From an uncultured Desulfobacter sp. (GTDB taxonomy: Bacteria; Desulfobacterota; Desulfobacteria; Desulfobacterales; Desulfobacteraceae): a stretch of 64,000 nt of DNA. A model generated the notes under the pieces. That model was not told the origin of the DNA. It ran no database searches and saw nothing but the letters and a program-made list of their open reading frames with translations. Position numbers and translations under genes: made by a program. Shown here in pieces: positions 16,183-26,804 of this stretch. Every line of letters begins with the position of its first letter. Within the stretch, counting starts at the first letter, position 1. The DNA lies in the NCBI GenBank assembly GCA_963665095.1, contig OY762069.1:4864001-4928000 (forward strand). Direction: 5' to 3'.

Positions 16183-17118
16183 TCAGCAAAGCAGATGGAT
16201 GATGGATAGTGCCAGCAACACAATAAAAGTATGCTTCTGATATTTTTTAAACCATGTGATGCGGATCAGGCGGGTGCCGATCTGACCACCCACGATAACG
16301 CCACTGCAGGTGGCAAACAGCAGATAGGTGCCGTGGGGCCAGGATGCCGCTCCCAGCAAGACACTGATGCAGACCAGAAAAAGATAAAAAAGGATGGTGA
16401 CAAACATGATGAACAGACTGGTGGCCACAGCCAGGGAGGTCGGCATCTTCATTTTAATGGTCATGTGAGGGATCAGCCAGTCTGTGTTACCGATGCTTAA
16501 AAGCCCTGTGAAAAATGAGGAAAGAAGTACCACCGGGTAGCTTCTGGTGTAAATATTAGGGGGAATGACGGTCTTGTTCTCTTCAACAACAGGGGGTTGC
16601 GTCTTAAGGGACTGGATGGTTCTAAATAAAAGATAGGCCGCAATGACAATAAAGATGTGAAGAAGAAGCTCTTCGTAACCCCTGGACATGTAGAAGCTGG
16701 AGAAAAAGCCAAGGGTTACCCCTGCCAGAGCCATGGGGATAAAGGCTGCGGCCATTTTTACATCCACCATGCCGTTACAAAGATAGGTTAAAGACCCGGT
16801 TCCCTTGCCGGCAATCTGGGTGAATATGGATATGGCAACCGCTTCAGAAGGTCTGATCTCCAGAAATGTTAGCACCGGTATCCACAGAACACCCGCCCCA
16901 AGCCCTGTGAACATCACCATGGACCCCACACCAATGGCCAGGAAATGGACAAAAATAAATCTGGAAAAGCTCAATGGAATTTCGGTGTCCAGGAAAAAGG
17001 ACAGAAAAAAAACATATGCAGCGTCCACCAGTATCCAGAAGCCCAGGTATTTAGGCATTTTGAACAGCAGGGACCAAATTTTCATCAGCAGATCATCCTT
17101 ATAACGGCCAAAAGCCAT
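16183..17118 (-). CDS. Sulfite exporter TauE/SafE (TSUP) family membrane protein
   Basis: TGLGAGVLWIPVL...AVAIS and FFTGLLSIG...IP...AVATSL duplicated TSUP motifs; GGQIG; multi-TM. Alternative start at 17085 with an AAGGA RBS. Confidence 0.82.
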   Translation of the reverse strand: MAFGRYKDDLLMKIWSLLFKMPKYLGFWILVDAAYVFFLSFFLDTEIPLSFSRFIFVHFLAIGVGSMVMFTGLGAGVLWIPVLTFLEIRPSEAVAISIFTQIAGKGTGSLTYLCNGMVDVKMAAAFIPMALAGVTLGFFSSFYMSRGYEELLLHIFIVIAAYLLFRTIQSLKTQPPVVEENKTVIPPNIYTRSYPVVLLSSFFTGLLSIGNTDWLIPHMTIKMKMPTSLAVATSLFIMFVTILFYLFLVCISVLLGAASWPHGTYLLFATCSGVIVGGQIGTRLIRITWFKKYQKHTFIVLLALSIIHLLC

Positions 17119-17358
17119 TTGTCACGTTCCATTCTTAACTACTTTTCCGCATTCTATACAAGAAGTTCGGTCTGGACAAGTTTCTCTTTCATATAGTTCA
17201 TTTTTTCCTGCCAGTTTTCAGGTTTTGGCTGTTTTTGATCCAACAGGTGGCGGTGAAACTTACAAAAGAAGTACTTGACATGCCGCCGGGCAAAGACTAA
17301 TCATTTGCTATACGTTTGTATACGAATTCTTATCTTTCTTCAGCAAAGGATAGATTGC

Positions 17359-18699
17359 GTGGACTTCAAAGAGAAGCTCTTGGCATTCATTTTCGTCTCA
17401 GGTTTCATTCTTGCGATGAGCAACCCGGCTGCTTTATGTGAGGACGCCGCGAGCAAGTGTGTCCAATGTCATACCAATTTAAAAAAACTGATTCGCCTGT
17501 GCTGGGAGGTGGAGAAGCTCAAACCAAAGCCCGGGGCCAGTGCCGAAACCAGCGGTGAAGGGTGAGGCGGTCCGCTGGCTCCGTTGGAGCTATACCAGAG
17601 AATTTATGTTGCCTCCTCTTTTCTGGAGACTGAACACGGGCAGATTGCGTGCGAACAATGTCATGGTGGCCGGCCGGATGACGATAACTGGCAGACCGCC
17701 CATGAGGGACTGGTGACCGATCCAACATTGCTGGATGCAGACCGGGTGTGCGGTGCGTGTCACGGCGATATTGTTGGAACCGCAAAGAACAGCCTGCACT
17801 ATACCCTGGCGCCCATGTATCAGGCTGTATTTAACCGGGCAGGAGGGGCGTGCTGTGCGCCAAAGACTAAAACAATTTTAAAAGAATCCATGGACAGGCA
17901 CTGTGGTGCCTGTCACAGCAGCTGCGGGCAGTGCCATGTATCGCGGCCGGATTACGTAAAAGGCGGTTTTTTGGCCAAGCACCATTTTAAAGGGACCCCG
18001 CCCATGGATACCACCTGCGCCTCCTGCCACGGGGGCCGGGTTCACGGCGAATTCACCGGGACCAATGAGGATTTCAGCCCGGATGTCCATTTTGAAGATG
18101 AGGAGATGACCTGCCTGAACTGTCATGGTGCACAGGAGATGCATGCCGATGCCCAAAAGGTTTCAAGCCGGTATACACTACCTGAAAAACCAACGTGTAT
18201 TCAGTGTCATGAAGAGGTCCTGCAGCCTGATGGCAAAAATCTTTATCATACCAGCCATGGCAGTAAGCTGGCCTGCCAGGTCTGCCATTCCCAGGCGTCA
18301 AAAAGCTGTTTCTCCTGCCATGTGGGCACCGATAAAAAAGGGCTTCCCTGGTTTAAATGCAAAAAAACAGATGTCATGTTTAAAATTGGGTTGAATCCGG
18401 ACAAGAGAGACCAGGCACCGTTTGAATATGTCGTTGTCCGGCACACACCGGTTGTTCCTGACACGTTTAAATTTTATATCCCGTCCGGACTGGAGCAGTT
18501 TTCAAAAGCGTCCACCTGGAAGCGGGCTACCCCTCATAATATTATCCGGAAAACCAGTCAGACTCAGACCTGTAACAGTTGCCACGGCAAGCCAGATCTG
18601 TTTTTACAAAAAAAGGATTTAACCCCAGAGGGGATTGACGCCAATCAGAATGTCATTGTGCCTGATGACAGGATTCCTGGAAAAATCCTGGAAAAATAA
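17359..18699 (+). CDS. Exported multiheme cytochrome c (11 CxxCH), probable selenoprotein with Sec at in-frame TGA 17563-17565 (residue 69 of 446)
   Basis: GTG 17359 after an AAAGGA RBS; signal peptide MDFKEKLLAFIFVSGFILAMSNPAALC; CVQCH; then ...SAETSGEG-TGA-GGPLAPLELYQ continuing in frame into the 17584-18699 ORF, which has 10 more CxxCH; SECIS-like hairpin just 3' of the TGA. Confidence 0.85.
17576..17592 (+). promoter_or_regulatory. Bacterial SECIS-like hairpin
   Basis: TGGCTCC-GTT-GGAGCTA: 7-bp stem (one G-U) starting 10 nt after the TGA; the apical loop starts with G, 17 nt after the TGA. Confidence 0.7.
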
Positions 18700-18781: not shown

Positions 18782-19354
18782 ATGAAAAGAATTTTTTGTT
18801 TTCTCACAACGGCATTGTTTTTCACTTCGCTGGCTTTTGCCGGAGGGTATGAGTACAAATCGAACGCAGATCATCTTGGCGGCGACCTGACACCGGAGAA
18901 TGCATTCAAAATGCTGGAAAAGGACCCGGAGCATACCTTCCTGGTAGATTGCCGTACCCGGGCAGAGTATCAGTTTGTGGGCCACCCTGAGAATGCATAT
19001 AATGTCCCCTTGCGGTTTTTAACCACTAAAGCGGGGAAAAAGGGATATACTGAAGCCATGAATGATAATTTCGGCAAAGACCTGCTCAGCCGGTTTAATC
19101 CAAAGACAGACACCCTGATCATCCTGTGCCGCTCCGGCAACAGAAGCTGTAAAGCCTGCAATGAAGCCATTAAGGCTGGATTTGACGAGGCAAAGGTGTT
19201 TAACCTCATGGGCGGTTTTGAAGGCGGGAAAAATAAAAACAAAGGCAGTGTGTATTACGGCAAAAGGTGGGCTGGCGGATGGAAGCTTGAAGGACTGCCC
19301 TGGACATACAATATGGATAAAAAATTGATGTATCAGCCCGATATCCAGGGATAG
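18782..19354 (+). CDS. Periplasmic rhodanese-like sulfurtransferase
   Basis: ATG 18782 after AAAGGAG; signal peptide MKRIFCFLTTALFFTSLAFA; LVDCRTRAEY..VGHP, active-site loop CRSGNRS, NLMGGFEG and GWKLEGLPW. Confidence 0.9.
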   Translation: MKRIFCFLTTALFFTSLAFAGGYEYKSNADHLGGDLTPENAFKMLEKDPEHTFLVDCRTRAEYQFVGHPENAYNVPLRFLTTKAGKKGYTEAMNDNFGKDLLSRFNPKTDTLIILCRSGNRSCKACNEAIKAGFDEAKVFNLMGGFEGGKNKNKGSVYYGKRWAGGWKLEGLPWTYNMDKKLMYQPDIQG

Positions 19355-23146: not shown

Positions 23147-23647
23147 CTATTCGGATGATCCTCTGGGGTGAAATGATCCGCCAAGGCGAGAAACCTCTTT
23201 CAGGACATTCTGAACAAGGTCATCAATCCGACCCTCAATCTCCGGCGTCAGGTGTTCGCTTAAACTTTCGAGATTCTTGGGCTCAATACCGATGATGGTG
23301 GTGTCAGGTACATGATCCAGGGCGTTGCAGAGGGTGAGCGCCTCAATGAGATCCACCTGGTGCAGGGAATTTTTGGCCAGAATTCTGTTGGGGATCTGAT
23401 CATGTTCCAGGCGGTGAAGGTCTCCCGGGTTTCCGTGGTTGAGTACGGTGTCCACCACAATAAGCCGGCCGGCATTTGAGATGACGCCTAATAAATTGAC
23501 ACCAAGTACCCCGCCGTCCACAATATCCACGTTATCGGAAAATTCATACTCTCGTTCTAGTTTTTCAACGACCCGGATACCTACGCCATCATCACTGTAA
23601 AGAATATTGCCAACGCCTAAGACCGTTATATTATTGATGTCCACCAT
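23147..23647 (-). CDS. Hydrogenase maturation endopeptidase (HyaD/HybD family)
   Basis: VLGVGNILYSDDGVG, DGG, IVVD and SLHQ. Confidence 0.93.
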   Translation of the reverse strand: MVDINNITVLGVGNILYSDDGVGIRVVEKLEREYEFSDNVDIVDGGVLGVNLLGVISNAGRLIVVDTVLNHGNPGDLHRLEHDQIPNRILAKNSLHQVDLIEALTLCNALDHVPDTTIIGIEPKNLESLSEHLTPEIEGRIDDLVQNVLKEVSRLGGSFHPRGSSE

Positions 23648-23670
23648 ATTATGTCCTGCTTAAAAAGTTT

Positions 23671-23700
23671 AGGGTTCCGGCATTATAGTGCCGGAACCCT
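23671..23700 (-). terminator. Stem-loop between the hydrogenase large subunit and the protease gene
   Basis: AGGGTTCCGGCA / TGCCGGAACCCT perfect 12-bp inverted repeat, followed on the - strand by AAACTTTTT. Confidence 0.6.
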
Positions 23701-23726
23701 GATTATTCAACCATCTGCCTGACAGA

Positions 23727-25364
23727 CTACACCACTTTTACCTCATAGGTCTGGTTGGTATGAGGATCAATCACATGAATGGCGCATGCAATGCACGGGT
23801 CATAGGAGTGAACGGTCCGCAGTACTTCCAGGGGCTGTGACGGATCAGCAATGGGGGTGCCGATCAGGGATTTTTCCACAGGACCTTTCTGGTTGTTGGC
23901 ATCGCTGGGGCCAAGGTTCCAGGTGGAGGGGACCACATACTGGTAATTTTTGATTTTACCGCCATCAATATCGATCCAGTGGCCCAACGCCCCGCGGGGA
24001 ACATCATTAAGGCCATATCCACGGCCTTTGTCCGGCATGGTCCAGGGCTGGTAGGTCTTTTTGTTGCCTGCGGCAATATTGGATTTAAGGGTTTCAATCC
24101 AGCCTTCCATGGCATCTGAGATAACCACGGTTTCCAGGCCGCGGGCTGCGGTTCTGCCCAGGGTGGAGAACAGAGCTTCTTTGCCGACGCCAAGGGTTTT
24201 CAGCGTGTAATTAACCAGTTTTTTTACATGATCCTGGCCCTGGGCATAGGCAACCAGAACCCGGGACAGCGGTCCGACTTCCGCAGACTTGCCTGCGTAT
24301 CTCGGGGCCTTGATCCAGGAGTACTTATCATCGGTGTTATAGGTGACTTCGCCCTGGATCGGTTTGGTCTCTCCATCAAACGGGTGTTTTGCCTCGCCTT
24401 TTTCATACCAGGCCCTGGTGACATCTTCGGTAATCTGGTTGGTGTCAACGGTGGCGTAGGAAAGGGCATCATCAACGATGCCGCTGGGCAGCAGGAGATC
24501 GTCATCCACATTTTTCTGGGGGAAGTCCCCGTATGCCAGATAGGTGTCGTTGTTACCGCCGATGGCACCCCAGTCCTTATAGAAAGAGGCCACTGCCAGC
24601 AGATCCGGAATGTAGACTTCATCAACAAAGGCCTTGGTCTCTTTCCAGATGGCCGTGTATTCGTCAATTCTTTCCGGGTTCAGGTCCTTAACACTGGTGA
24701 TACCGCCGACAACCAGAGACTGGGGATGGGGGTTTTTGCCGCCGAATATGGCGTGCATGCGGGCGGCTTTGGCCTGCAGCTTAAGCGCTTCCAGATAATG
24801 GGAGGCTGCCATGAGGTTGGCTTCTGCCGGCAGGTTATAGGCCGGATGGCCCCAGTATGCATTGTTAAAGGGACCGAGCTGACCGCTGTTGACAAAGGTT
24901 TTCAGCTTGGTCTGGACTTCTTTGAAGTAATCGGAATTCTGGGGTCTGCCGGAAACGTTCTCGGACAGTTTGGCGGTTTTGGCAGGATCTGCGGACAGGG
25001 CACTGACAATGTCCACCCAGTCCAGGGCATGCAGATGATAAAAGTGAACAATATGGTCATGCTGGAACTGGCTGCCGTGAAGCAGGTTCCGAATGATCCG
25101 TGCGTTTTCCGGGATCTCTATGTTGCAGGCCATTTCAACGGCCCGTACAGAGGCCAGTGCATGCACATAGGTGCACACCCCGCAGGAGCGCTGTACAAAA
25201 TGGTGGGCATCTCTGGGATCGCGGCCCTGGAGCATCATCTCAATACCCCTGAACATCTGGCCCGAACTCCAGGCATCGACGACCTTGCCGTTTTCAACTT
25301 CCACCTCAATTCTGAGATGGCCCTCAATTCTGGTAATGGGATCAACAATAATTCTTTTACCCAT
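23727..25364 (-). CDS. Periplasmic group 1 [NiFe] hydrogenase large subunit
   Basis: DPITRIEGH, L1 motif RSCGVC and L2 motif DPCIACAIH (Cys, not Sec), plus a cleavable C-terminal extension. Confidence 0.96.
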   Translation of the reverse strand: MGKRIIVDPITRIEGHLRIEVEVENGKVVDAWSSGQMFRGIEMMLQGRDPRDAHHFVQRSCGVCTYVHALASVRAVEMACNIEIPENARIIRNLLHGSQFQHDHIVHFYHLHALDWVDIVSALSADPAKTAKLSENVSGRPQNSDYFKEVQTKLKTFVNSGQLGPFNNAYWGHPAYNLPAEANLMAASHYLEALKLQAKAARMHAIFGGKNPHPQSLVVGGITSVKDLNPERIDEYTAIWKETKAFVDEVYIPDLLAVASFYKDWGAIGGNNDTYLAYGDFPQKNVDDDLLLPSGIVDDALSYATVDTNQITEDVTRAWYEKGEAKHPFDGETKPIQGEVTYNTDDKYSWIKAPRYAGKSAEVGPLSRVLVAYAQGQDHVKKLVNYTLKTLGVGKEALFSTLGRTAARGLETVVISDAMEGWIETLKSNIAAGNKKTYQPWTMPDKGRGYGLNDVPRGALGHWIDIDGGKIKNYQYVVPSTWNLGPSDANNQKGPVEKSLIGTPIADPSQPLEVLRTVHSYDPCIACAIHVIDPHTNQTYEVKVV

Positions 25365-25428
25365 AATAATATCCTTTCACATCAAACATGTTGAATTTTA
25401 GATTCTAAATGATGGTCCGCGTGTGTTT

Positions 25429-26370
25429 CTACATCTCTTCATAGAACGGTGTCATGTTGTCCCAGAAGTCCGGTTCACTGCAGCCAATGCAGGGGTGACC
25501 GGCCTGGATGGGAAAACTTGTGCCGTCGTTGAACTTCGCGGTGGGGCAATTATTATAGGTTTCAGGACCCTTACAGCCCATTTTGTAAAGACAGTATCCA
25601 AGCTCCGCTTCTTTGGAGCCGAATTCTTCCACAAATTTGCCTTCTTCATAGAAGTCCAGGCGCGGGCAGTTGTCATGAACGGTTTCGCCGTATGCGAACA
25701 TGGGTCTGCCGTAATCGTCAAGTTCTATCTCTTCATTATTCAGATACTTGACGATGGTACCAAGCAGGTTTAATGGGTTGAAAGGACAGCCGGGCAGGTT
25801 GATGGTGTCAATGCCGATGGCGTCTTTTACACCTTTATATCCGCCGGGATTCGGGGCGGCTGCAGACACACCACCATAGGCTGAACAGGTGCCTACACAG
25901 ATGGTGGCAGCTGCTTTGGGGATCACTTCCTTGGCAATGTCAAGGAATGTTTTTCCGGCCACTTTACCGTAAGCGCCGTTGTAACTGGTTGCGATGGCAC
26001 CTTCCACAACGCAGACAAATTTGCCGTTGTATTTCTCAACCGCTTCGTGCAAATTTTTTTCAGCCTGGTGACCGGCCGCAGCCATGATGGTTTCATGGTA
26101 TTCCACGGAAATGGTCTCCAGGATAATGCCGCCGACATCCGGCGTTCTTAAGAAAGCCTCTGAACAGCCGGTGCATTCAGAGAAGTGAAGCCATACCACC
26201 GGGGGACGTATTGCAGCCGCTTTCTCAATCTGCTCGGCTACCTGTCCCACACAGGAGTACGACAAGCCCATGGTTGCAGTCAGGGCCGTGCAGTACTTGA
26301 GAAAATCTCTTCTTGAGACCCCTTTTGATTCCAATACTTCATAAAACTTCTTGCTGGGATTTGTTTCCAT
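25429..26370 (-). CDS. [NiFe] hydrogenase small subunit, Tat-exported, no C-terminal membrane anchor
   Basis: Tat motif SRRDFLK; ECTGCSE, GTC, PGCP, HDNCPR, CLYKMGCKGP and HPCIGC; ATG 26370 follows GGAGG. Confidence 0.95.
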   Translation of the reverse strand: METNPSKKFYEVLESKGVSRRDFLKYCTALTATMGLSYSCVGQVAEQIEKAAAIRPPVVWLHFSECTGCSEAFLRTPDVGGIILETISVEYHETIMAAAGHQAEKNLHEAVEKYNGKFVCVVEGAIATSYNGAYGKVAGKTFLDIAKEVIPKAAATICVGTCSAYGGVSAAAPNPGGYKGVKDAIGIDTINLPGCPFNPLNLLGTIVKYLNNEEIELDDYGRPMFAYGETVHDNCPRLDFYEEGKFVEEFGSKEAELGYCLYKMGCKGPETYNNCPTAKFNDGTSFPIQAGHPCIGCSEPDFWDNMTPFYEEM

Positions 26371-26804
26371 AGCACCTCCATTGGTCGCTGTTATGATTTC
26401 AATCATAAATTGGGTTTATTATTCTAGGTTAGGTTCATTCGCTATAGCAAATTGATTGTTTAAATCTATATGATGAAAATAGATTGAATATCTCTATTTC
26501 TAAAATTTATAAAAACTGGCAGATCTCTTTTTGTGGGGGCAATATGGGATAGGTGTCAAATATTGACTTTTAACAGGCGCATTTTTGCTTGACTTCACAC
26601 TGTTTTATATATAGTAAAGTTACCTTATAAAGATATGCATAGCAAACAAATATATATAATATAATAAAATAGTTCGTTTGATATATTTGAAAGGGCATAT
26701 TAACTTAAGGTTGGCCTTTGAACTATGGCTGCAGAAAATCTGTTTGTGACCATCAGGGCGACATAGAAACAAGATGTAACTTTTTATTTATAAATGGGTT
26801 TTCC

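Follow-up and report, generated by a model that had tools for sequence, protein, structure and literature searches.

A widespread, apparently undescribed family of eleven-heme cytochromes c with a predicted selenocysteine and a rhodanese partner

The 64,000-nt stretch of an uncultured Desulfobacter genome analysed here (the window) carries a gene for an exported eleven-heme cytochrome c, split by an in-frame UGA that, judging from comparative sequence evidence, almost certainly encodes selenocysteine (Sec). Its relatives form a real, widespread and apparently undescribed selenoprotein family, nearly always encoded next to a rhodanese. Only one multiheme selenoenzyme, MccSep (2026), has been characterised so far.

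The gene and its reading frame

With TGA translated as selenocysteine, positions 17359-18699 give a protein of 446 aa with a single internal TGA (17563-65, U69, in GEG-U-GG) and a terminal TAA. Eleven CxxCH motifs begin at residues 34, 98, 131, 182, 189, 220, 252, 280, 306, 317 and 405: one on the N-terminal side of the UGA and ten on the C-terminal side. The features of the locus are as follows.

17346..17350, + strand: ribosome-binding site AAGGA, read from the sequence, 8 nt upstream of GTG 17359
17359..18699, + strand: gene for the predicted Sec-containing 11-heme c cytochrome, 446 aa (frame; Cys-type homologues L044-L047; AlphaFold)
17359..17439, + strand: predicted Sec-pathway signal peptide, about 27 aa (hydrophobicity; similar N-termini in relatives)
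17458..17472, + strand: heme 1 motif CVQCH, 5' of the UGA, invariant in 83/83 Sec-type and 33/33 full-length non-Sec relatives
17563..17565, + strand: in-frame UGA, almost certainly Sec69, in the context G-x-G-U-[GA] (column conservation; Cys in 18/33 non-UGA relatives)
17576..17592, + strand: SECIS-type hairpin with a 7-bp stem and a 3-nt loop starting with G, the loop G lying 17 nt after the UGA (folding, covariation)
17902..17916, + strand: heme 4 motif C182-H186, candidate active-site heme (profile alignments to 1SP3 and the genome's own OTR)
18782..19354, + strand: exported single-domain rhodanese, 190 aa, active-site loop CRSGNRS (PF00581, E 1.5e-14; PDB rhodanese matches)

A prior sequence-only reading of this DNA had joined two annotated frames into one exported protein of this length, heme number and Sec position, and the frame, the motif count and the hydrophobic leader bear it out. 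The best 11-residue Kyte-Doolittle mean is 2.71 at the cytochrome N-terminus versus 0.59 in the downstream ORF, whose TTG start (17584) lies within the hairpin and has its closest GAGG 16 nt upstream; this agrees with the earlier view that the downstream ORF has neither a signal peptide nor a properly spaced ribosome-binding site. Two relatives (L001, L002) have an ATG start at the position equivalent to GTG 17359. Assuming cleavage after residue 27, a site placed by eye, the predicted mature mass is ~46 kDa for the apoprotein and ~53 kDa with 11 hemes. All 11 heme sites are invariant across the family: in many members counted as having ten CxxCH motifs the heme-8 motif is widened and the heme is not lost. 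A promoter scan yields one sigma-70-like site (10/12, 17275-17304), which is at chance level (3 found versus 3.3 expected), and the sequencing runs listed as containing the locus include no RNA run. Sequencing error, which the sequence-only reading had named as a way to be wrong, does not account for the TGA: contigs of three public runs from three studies (X3, X6 and X9, of which X6 may be the source DNA) span it with no difference listed, and the codon is conserved far beyond chance.

The UGA column, the hairpin and the selenocysteine machinery

Matches occur in 42 of 301 genomes of the class (46 rows, ~1 in 7) and in 44 of 401 genomes of the phylum (47 rows, ~1 in 9), and metagenomes add hundreds of copies beyond these. 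All 41 class-level rows with E<1e-100 carry exactly one TGA. Four full-length class-level sequences at 33-39% identity have none and read AEG-C-GG (L044-L047), and one further row is internally deleted; at the phylum level 46 of 47 rows have the TGA, and the remaining row is a C-terminal contig fragment. With duplicates (L003-L005, L097-L100), the deleted copy L048 and the fragment L072 left out, U falls in one single column in 83/83 Sec-type sequences, down to 29% identity. A metagenome scan that took in a more distant clade gave 579 confirmed stretches, and all 80 metagenome loci kept show a stop between G[ED]G and [GA]G or between GAG and GG. Throughout the genome and metagenome loci this stop is always UGA, never TAA or TAG.

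The sequence-only reading had asked for UGA or Cys in this column with homology on both sides, and this pattern is found: UGA in every one of the 83 and 80 sequences above, and Cys at or beside the column in 18 of 33 full-length non-UGA relatives (the four loci and 29 picked among 150 library matches listed). It had also counted ordinary residues in the column as a sign of a nonsense mutation; these are absent from all 83 Sec-type sequences and do appear in the other 15 of the 33 non-UGA relatives (W, Y, R, H, M and others). As these 15 lack both Cys and Sec at the site, a chalcogen is not needed for the scaffold to exist. In a quick tree built with the Sec region left out, Sec forms occupy several deep clades with Cys forms interleaved, on deep branches that are weakly supported.

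The bacterial SECIS consensus is a hairpin 3' of the UGA with a G in its apical loop. Single-sequence folding finds the region no more stable than shuffled sequences (z -0.63 to +0.34), and it is the comparative test that bears out the SECIS-type hairpin. Across 39 distinct sequences 94.5% of cells pair, versus at most 48% in slid controls, and two stem pairs vary on both sides in 31 cells, a level reached in 0/500 shuffles, although kinship among the sequences inflates these covariation counts. RNAalifold recovers the identical stem. In total, 135 of the 162 sites, one of which was mis-picked, are followed by a stem of at least five pairs with a G-starting loop, and 120 have it at the identical 17-nt spacing; for the genome's 1272 ordinary TGA stops the number is 116. 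The swap of stem sides alters the encoded amino acids (APLE versus EPLA), as expected under selection on RNA shape.

The host genome has two uncultured Desulfospira as its nearest named relatives (75% identity) and carries the full set of genes for which a check had been proposed: selA, selB, selD (itself containing a TGA) and tRNA-Sec. Presence of selA in 75/77 UGA-type genomes is uninformative, because 371/401 genomes of the phylum have it; the four Cys-type genomes also carry selB. Taken together, the conserved UGA/Cys column, the covarying hairpin and the selA, selB, selD and tRNA-Sec genes make selenocysteine the almost certain reading of UGA 17563-65. It is very improbable that the locus instead represents two real genes (one for a monoheme peptide, the other for a decaheme protein lacking a signal), a nonsense mutation or a sequencing error, for although databases annotate both parts separately and the hairpin alone is not unusually stable, no homologue ends in TAA or TAG here, uninterrupted Cys homologues exist, the hairpin covaries, the downstream ORF lacks a signal peptide and a spaced ribosome-binding site, and independent contigs keep the TGA.

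A tRNA-Pyl also lies in this genome (G000:C1:896260-900790), adjoining ORFs that by eye resemble pylS/B/C/D, so that the host appears, by sequence, to use both selenocysteine and pyrrolysine.

Kinship, conserved residues and novelty

AlphaFold gives one confident model of the cytochrome (pLDDT 94, pTM 0.89); a single-sequence model of the N-terminal 137 residues is unusable (pLDDT 49.7). The top VIA-align match is OTR 1SP3 (Z 8.6, rmsd 4.6, 251 aligned; next 4.2), a score at that rmsd just above the typical background Z of 7-8, and MccSep is absent from the listing. Foldseek against the PDB finds no match at E<=0.001, and phmmer against the PDB finds none. In the family profile, hemes 3-9 are colinear with OTR hemes I-VII and heme 11 weakly matches heme VIII, while HHalign to an OTR-family protein, the genome's own OTR, gives 97.5% with colinear heme motifs. 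By these alignments the core of the eleven-heme protein (hemes 3-9 and 11) is distantly homologous to OTR. This kinship, like the near-universal rhodanese partner, goes beyond the sequence-only reading.

OTR of Shewanella oneidensis (SO4144, 1SP3; TIGR04315) has the ligand motifs SLH/SHW, DVH and HxxH in common with the eleven-heme protein, in which the eight-heme core is kept in OTR order; three additional hemes (1, 2 and 10) set the latter apart. TIGR04315 itself, with a cut-off of 375 bits, leaves the window protein unmatched at E 0.01 and matches 21 of 107 family members weakly, at best with E 5.9e-10 and far under the cut-off; the true OTR of the host is encoded at another locus. The counterpart of heme 4 (C182-H186) in OTR is heme II, which we take to be the catalytic one, and E231 aligns with OTR D150, which presumably lines the heme II pocket. 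At the sequence level no equivalent of OTR Lys56 or Cys64 is conserved, the aligned stretch 148-181 having only R160 conserved; Lys56 is the ligand of OTR heme II in the available part of PMC3769277. In the Sec-type OTR of the host genome, Sec stands in place of the NNFC cysteine immediately ahead of heme II, whereas in the eleven-heme protein it lies ~110 residues earlier, in the added N-terminal loop.

A genome scan for TGA-split multiheme frames returns only the eleven-heme cytochrome gene and a second seleno-cytochrome, L123 (G000:C1:2253945-2255969, minus strand). In the latter, an OTR domain (TIGR04315, 490 bits) is fused behind four N-terminal hemes; a TGA in frame takes the position of the NNFC cysteine ahead of heme II and is followed by a hairpin. 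The genes upstream of L123 encode what look, by their sequences, like a Tat-signal Fe-S protein and a HybB/NrfD-like membrane protein. Another exported cytochrome of the genome, with eight CxxCH motifs (G000:C1:890759-891856, minus strand), is weakly similar to hemes 4-10 of the eleven-heme protein (E 8e-9) and also has a tight double heme motif.

Outside the heme motifs, nine His are universal or nearly so (93, 115, 147, 208, 244, 262, 297, 300 and 393) for eleven hemes. H297 seems to be lost in 24/75 metagenome sequences, but this results from a shift in the alignment, as 75/75 have HxxH or HxxxH. H181 and H362 are common, yet both are missing from 17 Sec-type members, leaving two hemes that have no universal sixth His; present here and in most relatives, these two residues could fill the open sites. 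With nine conserved His for eleven hemes, Sec may lie on or beside a heme. R160, R227, E231, D242 and R361 are invariant or nearly so. The sequence-only reading had offered free cysteines (in LCW and a vicinal CC) as Sec partners, and here it fails: they are present in the sequence but not conserved, and no free Cys is conserved across the family. C48 is Cys in 9/83 Sec-type and 0/75 metagenome relatives, and the vicinal pair C165/C166 is rare and nearly private to this lineage. Non-conservation rules out C48, C165, C166 and C334 as partners.

The earlier view that the family is distinct from ExtKL finds support. MccSep, which is ExtKL (GSU2937-2936 of Geobacter sulfurreducens; NF040886; PDB 9wt8), is likewise described, in the available part of PMC13510729, as a periplasmic multiheme protein split by a Sec UGA, with a SECIS-like hairpin. 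Both have Cys-type homologues, a rhodanese in the cluster (ExtH in the case of MccSep/ExtKL; PMC5877670) and Desulfobacterota hosts. In MccSep there are five hemes, one of the heme ligands is the invariant Cys239, and Sec325 belongs to a C-terminal Ig-like domain (same part of PMC13510729), whereas the family here has eleven hemes, lacks a conserved free Cys and carries Sec69 between hemes 1 and 2. The family profile reaches MccSep at E 0.16, NF040886 matches 0/107 members and not the window protein, and it has no match in the 97% complete host genome. Judged by profile and motif, the eleven-heme family is no member of MccSep/ExtKL.

Among NCBIfam and Pfam models, the window protein and 107 members match nothing beyond generic cytochrome models. 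In the available part of a 2026 inventory of 119 prokaryotic selenoprotein families (PMC13188914), the cytochrome-type entries are ExtKL, GSU2204 and the TIGR04315 octaheme protein, and the eleven-heme family matches none of these three. The Sec form of OTR, such as the one encoded elsewhere in the host genome, is annotated in GenBank and stands in Table 1 of the same inventory. PMC1914089, in its accessible part, reports only ExtKL. The words 'cytochrome' and 'heme' are absent from the main texts of BSepDB (PMC13326102), deep-Sep (PMC12013277) and SelCysML (PMC13745706), whose supplements or databases could list members. No description of an eleven-heme Sec family was found in the literature, subscription papers being outside the search.

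Relatives in public databases are truncated at the UGA, as the sequence-only reading had suspected of a generally mis-annotated family. Many library matches start at query residues 73-79, directly past the UGA; an example is WP_126378598.1, a 382-aa 'hypothetical protein' of Desulfovibrio ferrophilus, and from its truncation point we infer a UGA upstream of its locus, DFE_1749. Signal-less fragments of this kind are common in public records, so heme count, location and active-site residue are wrong there. Three supplementary tables of PMC8322314 list DFE_1749 with low spectral counts (0-5); the PMC13638558 supplements and the PMC11434368 text yielded no mention of it. By locus numbering, a YeeE/YedE gene (DFE_1752) and a PAS-sigma54 regulator (DFE_1747) are near it. 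As a member seen in published proteomes of a cultured, genetically tractable organism, DFE_1749 makes the mechanism proposed below testable.

The rhodanese partner and a proposed mechanism

The rhodanese gene of the window is co-oriented with the cytochrome gene and begins 82 nt downstream. Across 87 genome loci a rhodanese is co-oriented within 800 nt downstream or fused in 79, upstream in 2 and absent in 3, with no room in another 3; it is thus adjacent or fused in 81/84 loci with room. Five loci are in-frame fusions of the cytochrome to tandem rhodaneses (L039-L043). The 80 metagenome loci include 53 with a rhodanese, 25 short contigs on which none was found and 2 loci with room where none was found, one of these having a divergent rhodanese-like ORF. 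Partner rhodaneses fall into at least four size classes of differing architecture, so the pairing recurs with different rhodaneses; those inspected have a signal or lipoprotein leader and an active-site Cys. Other neighbours are sporadic: YeeE (4 loci), an Se/S carrier (2), selA (2), PAS-sigma54 activators and other multiheme cytochromes. No conserved electron donor stands beside the cytochrome gene among the 87 loci. Complex prediction for the Cys-type cytochrome L047 and its rhodanese scores 0.00, which is no answer either way.

We lean, with slightly better than even confidence, towards a periplasmic reductase of rhodanese-delivered sulfane sulfur as the best mechanism. SelB would bind the hairpin and insert Sec69, and the cytochrome would be exported and loaded with its 11 hemes. 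The rhodanese would take sulfur from polysulfide or thiosulfate as a Cys-persulfide, which Sec69, on its flexible Gly-rich loop, would attack at a heme with no sixth His—probably heme 4, the equivalent of the OTR catalytic heme, close to which the OTR alignment places the invariant R227 and E231. Two electrons would then pass along the heme chain to reduce the Se-S bond, and sulfide would be released. All steps beyond the sequence anatomy are ones we infer. What speaks most strongly against a catalytic Sec is that 15 relatives have other residues in its place. If true, the mechanism would make the family a candidate for the turnover of intermediate sulfur species in anoxic sediments.

In Wolinella, the periplasmic rhodanese Sud feeds polysulfide sulfur to the reductase Psr. 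Psr is a molybdoenzyme, whereas the reductase proposed here would be a Mo-free seleno-cytochrome; in the comparison with Sud, one partner rhodanese of the family (L113) matches PDB 1qxn at E 3.4e-9 and the window rhodanese is unmatched at E 0.001. The proposed working would resemble that of MccSep, which reduces polysulfide at a Sec-heme site according to the available part of PMC13510729, but the Sec site here is unrelated and a second Cys is lacking. More tentatively, Sec itself may be the axial ligand of a heme c and take sulfane sulfur directly from its dedicated rhodanese, in a widespread Mo-free periplasmic sulfur respiration; we consider this extension possible but doubtful. If true, a heme c active site with His/Sec ligation would exist in nature, and Sec would have been placed on the OTR scaffold a second time, independently. 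A natural Sec-ligated P450 is a precedent for Sec-heme ligation (PMC11703216, in the part available), and the literature yielded none for Sec ligating heme c.

TsdA and SoxAX are di- or triheme thiosulfate enzymes with a His/Cys-ligated heme c, and SoxAX acts on a carrier-bound sulfur substrate. They would share with the eleven-heme protein a chalcogen-ligated catalytic heme working on sulfane sulfur; phmmer, Foldseek and VIA-align find no sequence or fold match between them. That the same sulfur chemistry runs oxidatively or reversibly in their manner, with sulfide, polysulfide or thiosulfate giving electrons to a His/Sec heme, as might happen in sulfur disproportionation, seems to us rather unlikely. 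The neighbourhood does not fix the direction, and with no second Cys conserved, Sec or Cys could itself ligate the heme, as Cys does in TsdA; the Discussion of PMC13510729 relates His/Cys hemes to the reverse reaction, but OTR, the closest fold, and MccSep, the closest functional analogue (PMC13510729), are both described as reductases.

A still less likely reading denies catalysis: the protein would be an electron carrier in which Sec only tunes the potential of one heme as axial ligand, the rhodanese link being regulatory or incidental. Two observations fit such a carrier: conserved His are fewer than hemes, and in some relatives the Sec position holds His, Met or Tyr, residues that could ligate heme. 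Other relatives, however, have Trp or Arg there, which cannot act as ligands, and both the invariant charged residues R160, R227, E231 and R361 and the repeated fusion or pairing with different catalytic rhodaneses point to chemistry.

Rhodaneses also carry selenium and serve other sulfur traffic. The protein might accordingly reduce Se or Te oxyanions or acquire selenium, Sec69 attacking selenite and the rhodanese carrying selenide, which we regard as improbable. YeeE and the Se/S carrier near some loci, and selA near two, would suit this role, but such neighbours occur in few of the 87 loci, selA is as uninformative here as above, and an eleven-heme wire suggests respiratory flux over trace-element uptake. 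MccSep reduces selenite too (PMC13510729, available part).

Several arrangements around the family deserve mention beside the reductase reading. In the window, a TauE/SafE sulfite-exporter family gene (16183-17118, minus strand) diverges from the cytochrome gene; it does not cluster with the neighbours of other loci and is therefore probably local. About 4 kb downstream lie genes that by eye encode the small and large subunits and the maturation protease of a [NiFe] hydrogenase (23147-26406, minus strand), which have no linkage to the cytochrome in other loci. In the rhodanese-fused copy L048 (G223:C13) an internal deletion has brought heme 2 up against the heme 9-10 region; this copy is probably a broken gene or an assembly collapse. 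In one clade (L087, L093, L094, L095 and L096), the cytochrome with its tandem rhodanese is followed by a multiheme protein of 610-760 aa and often by a second rhodanese pair, an arrangement that may represent a larger sulfur module.
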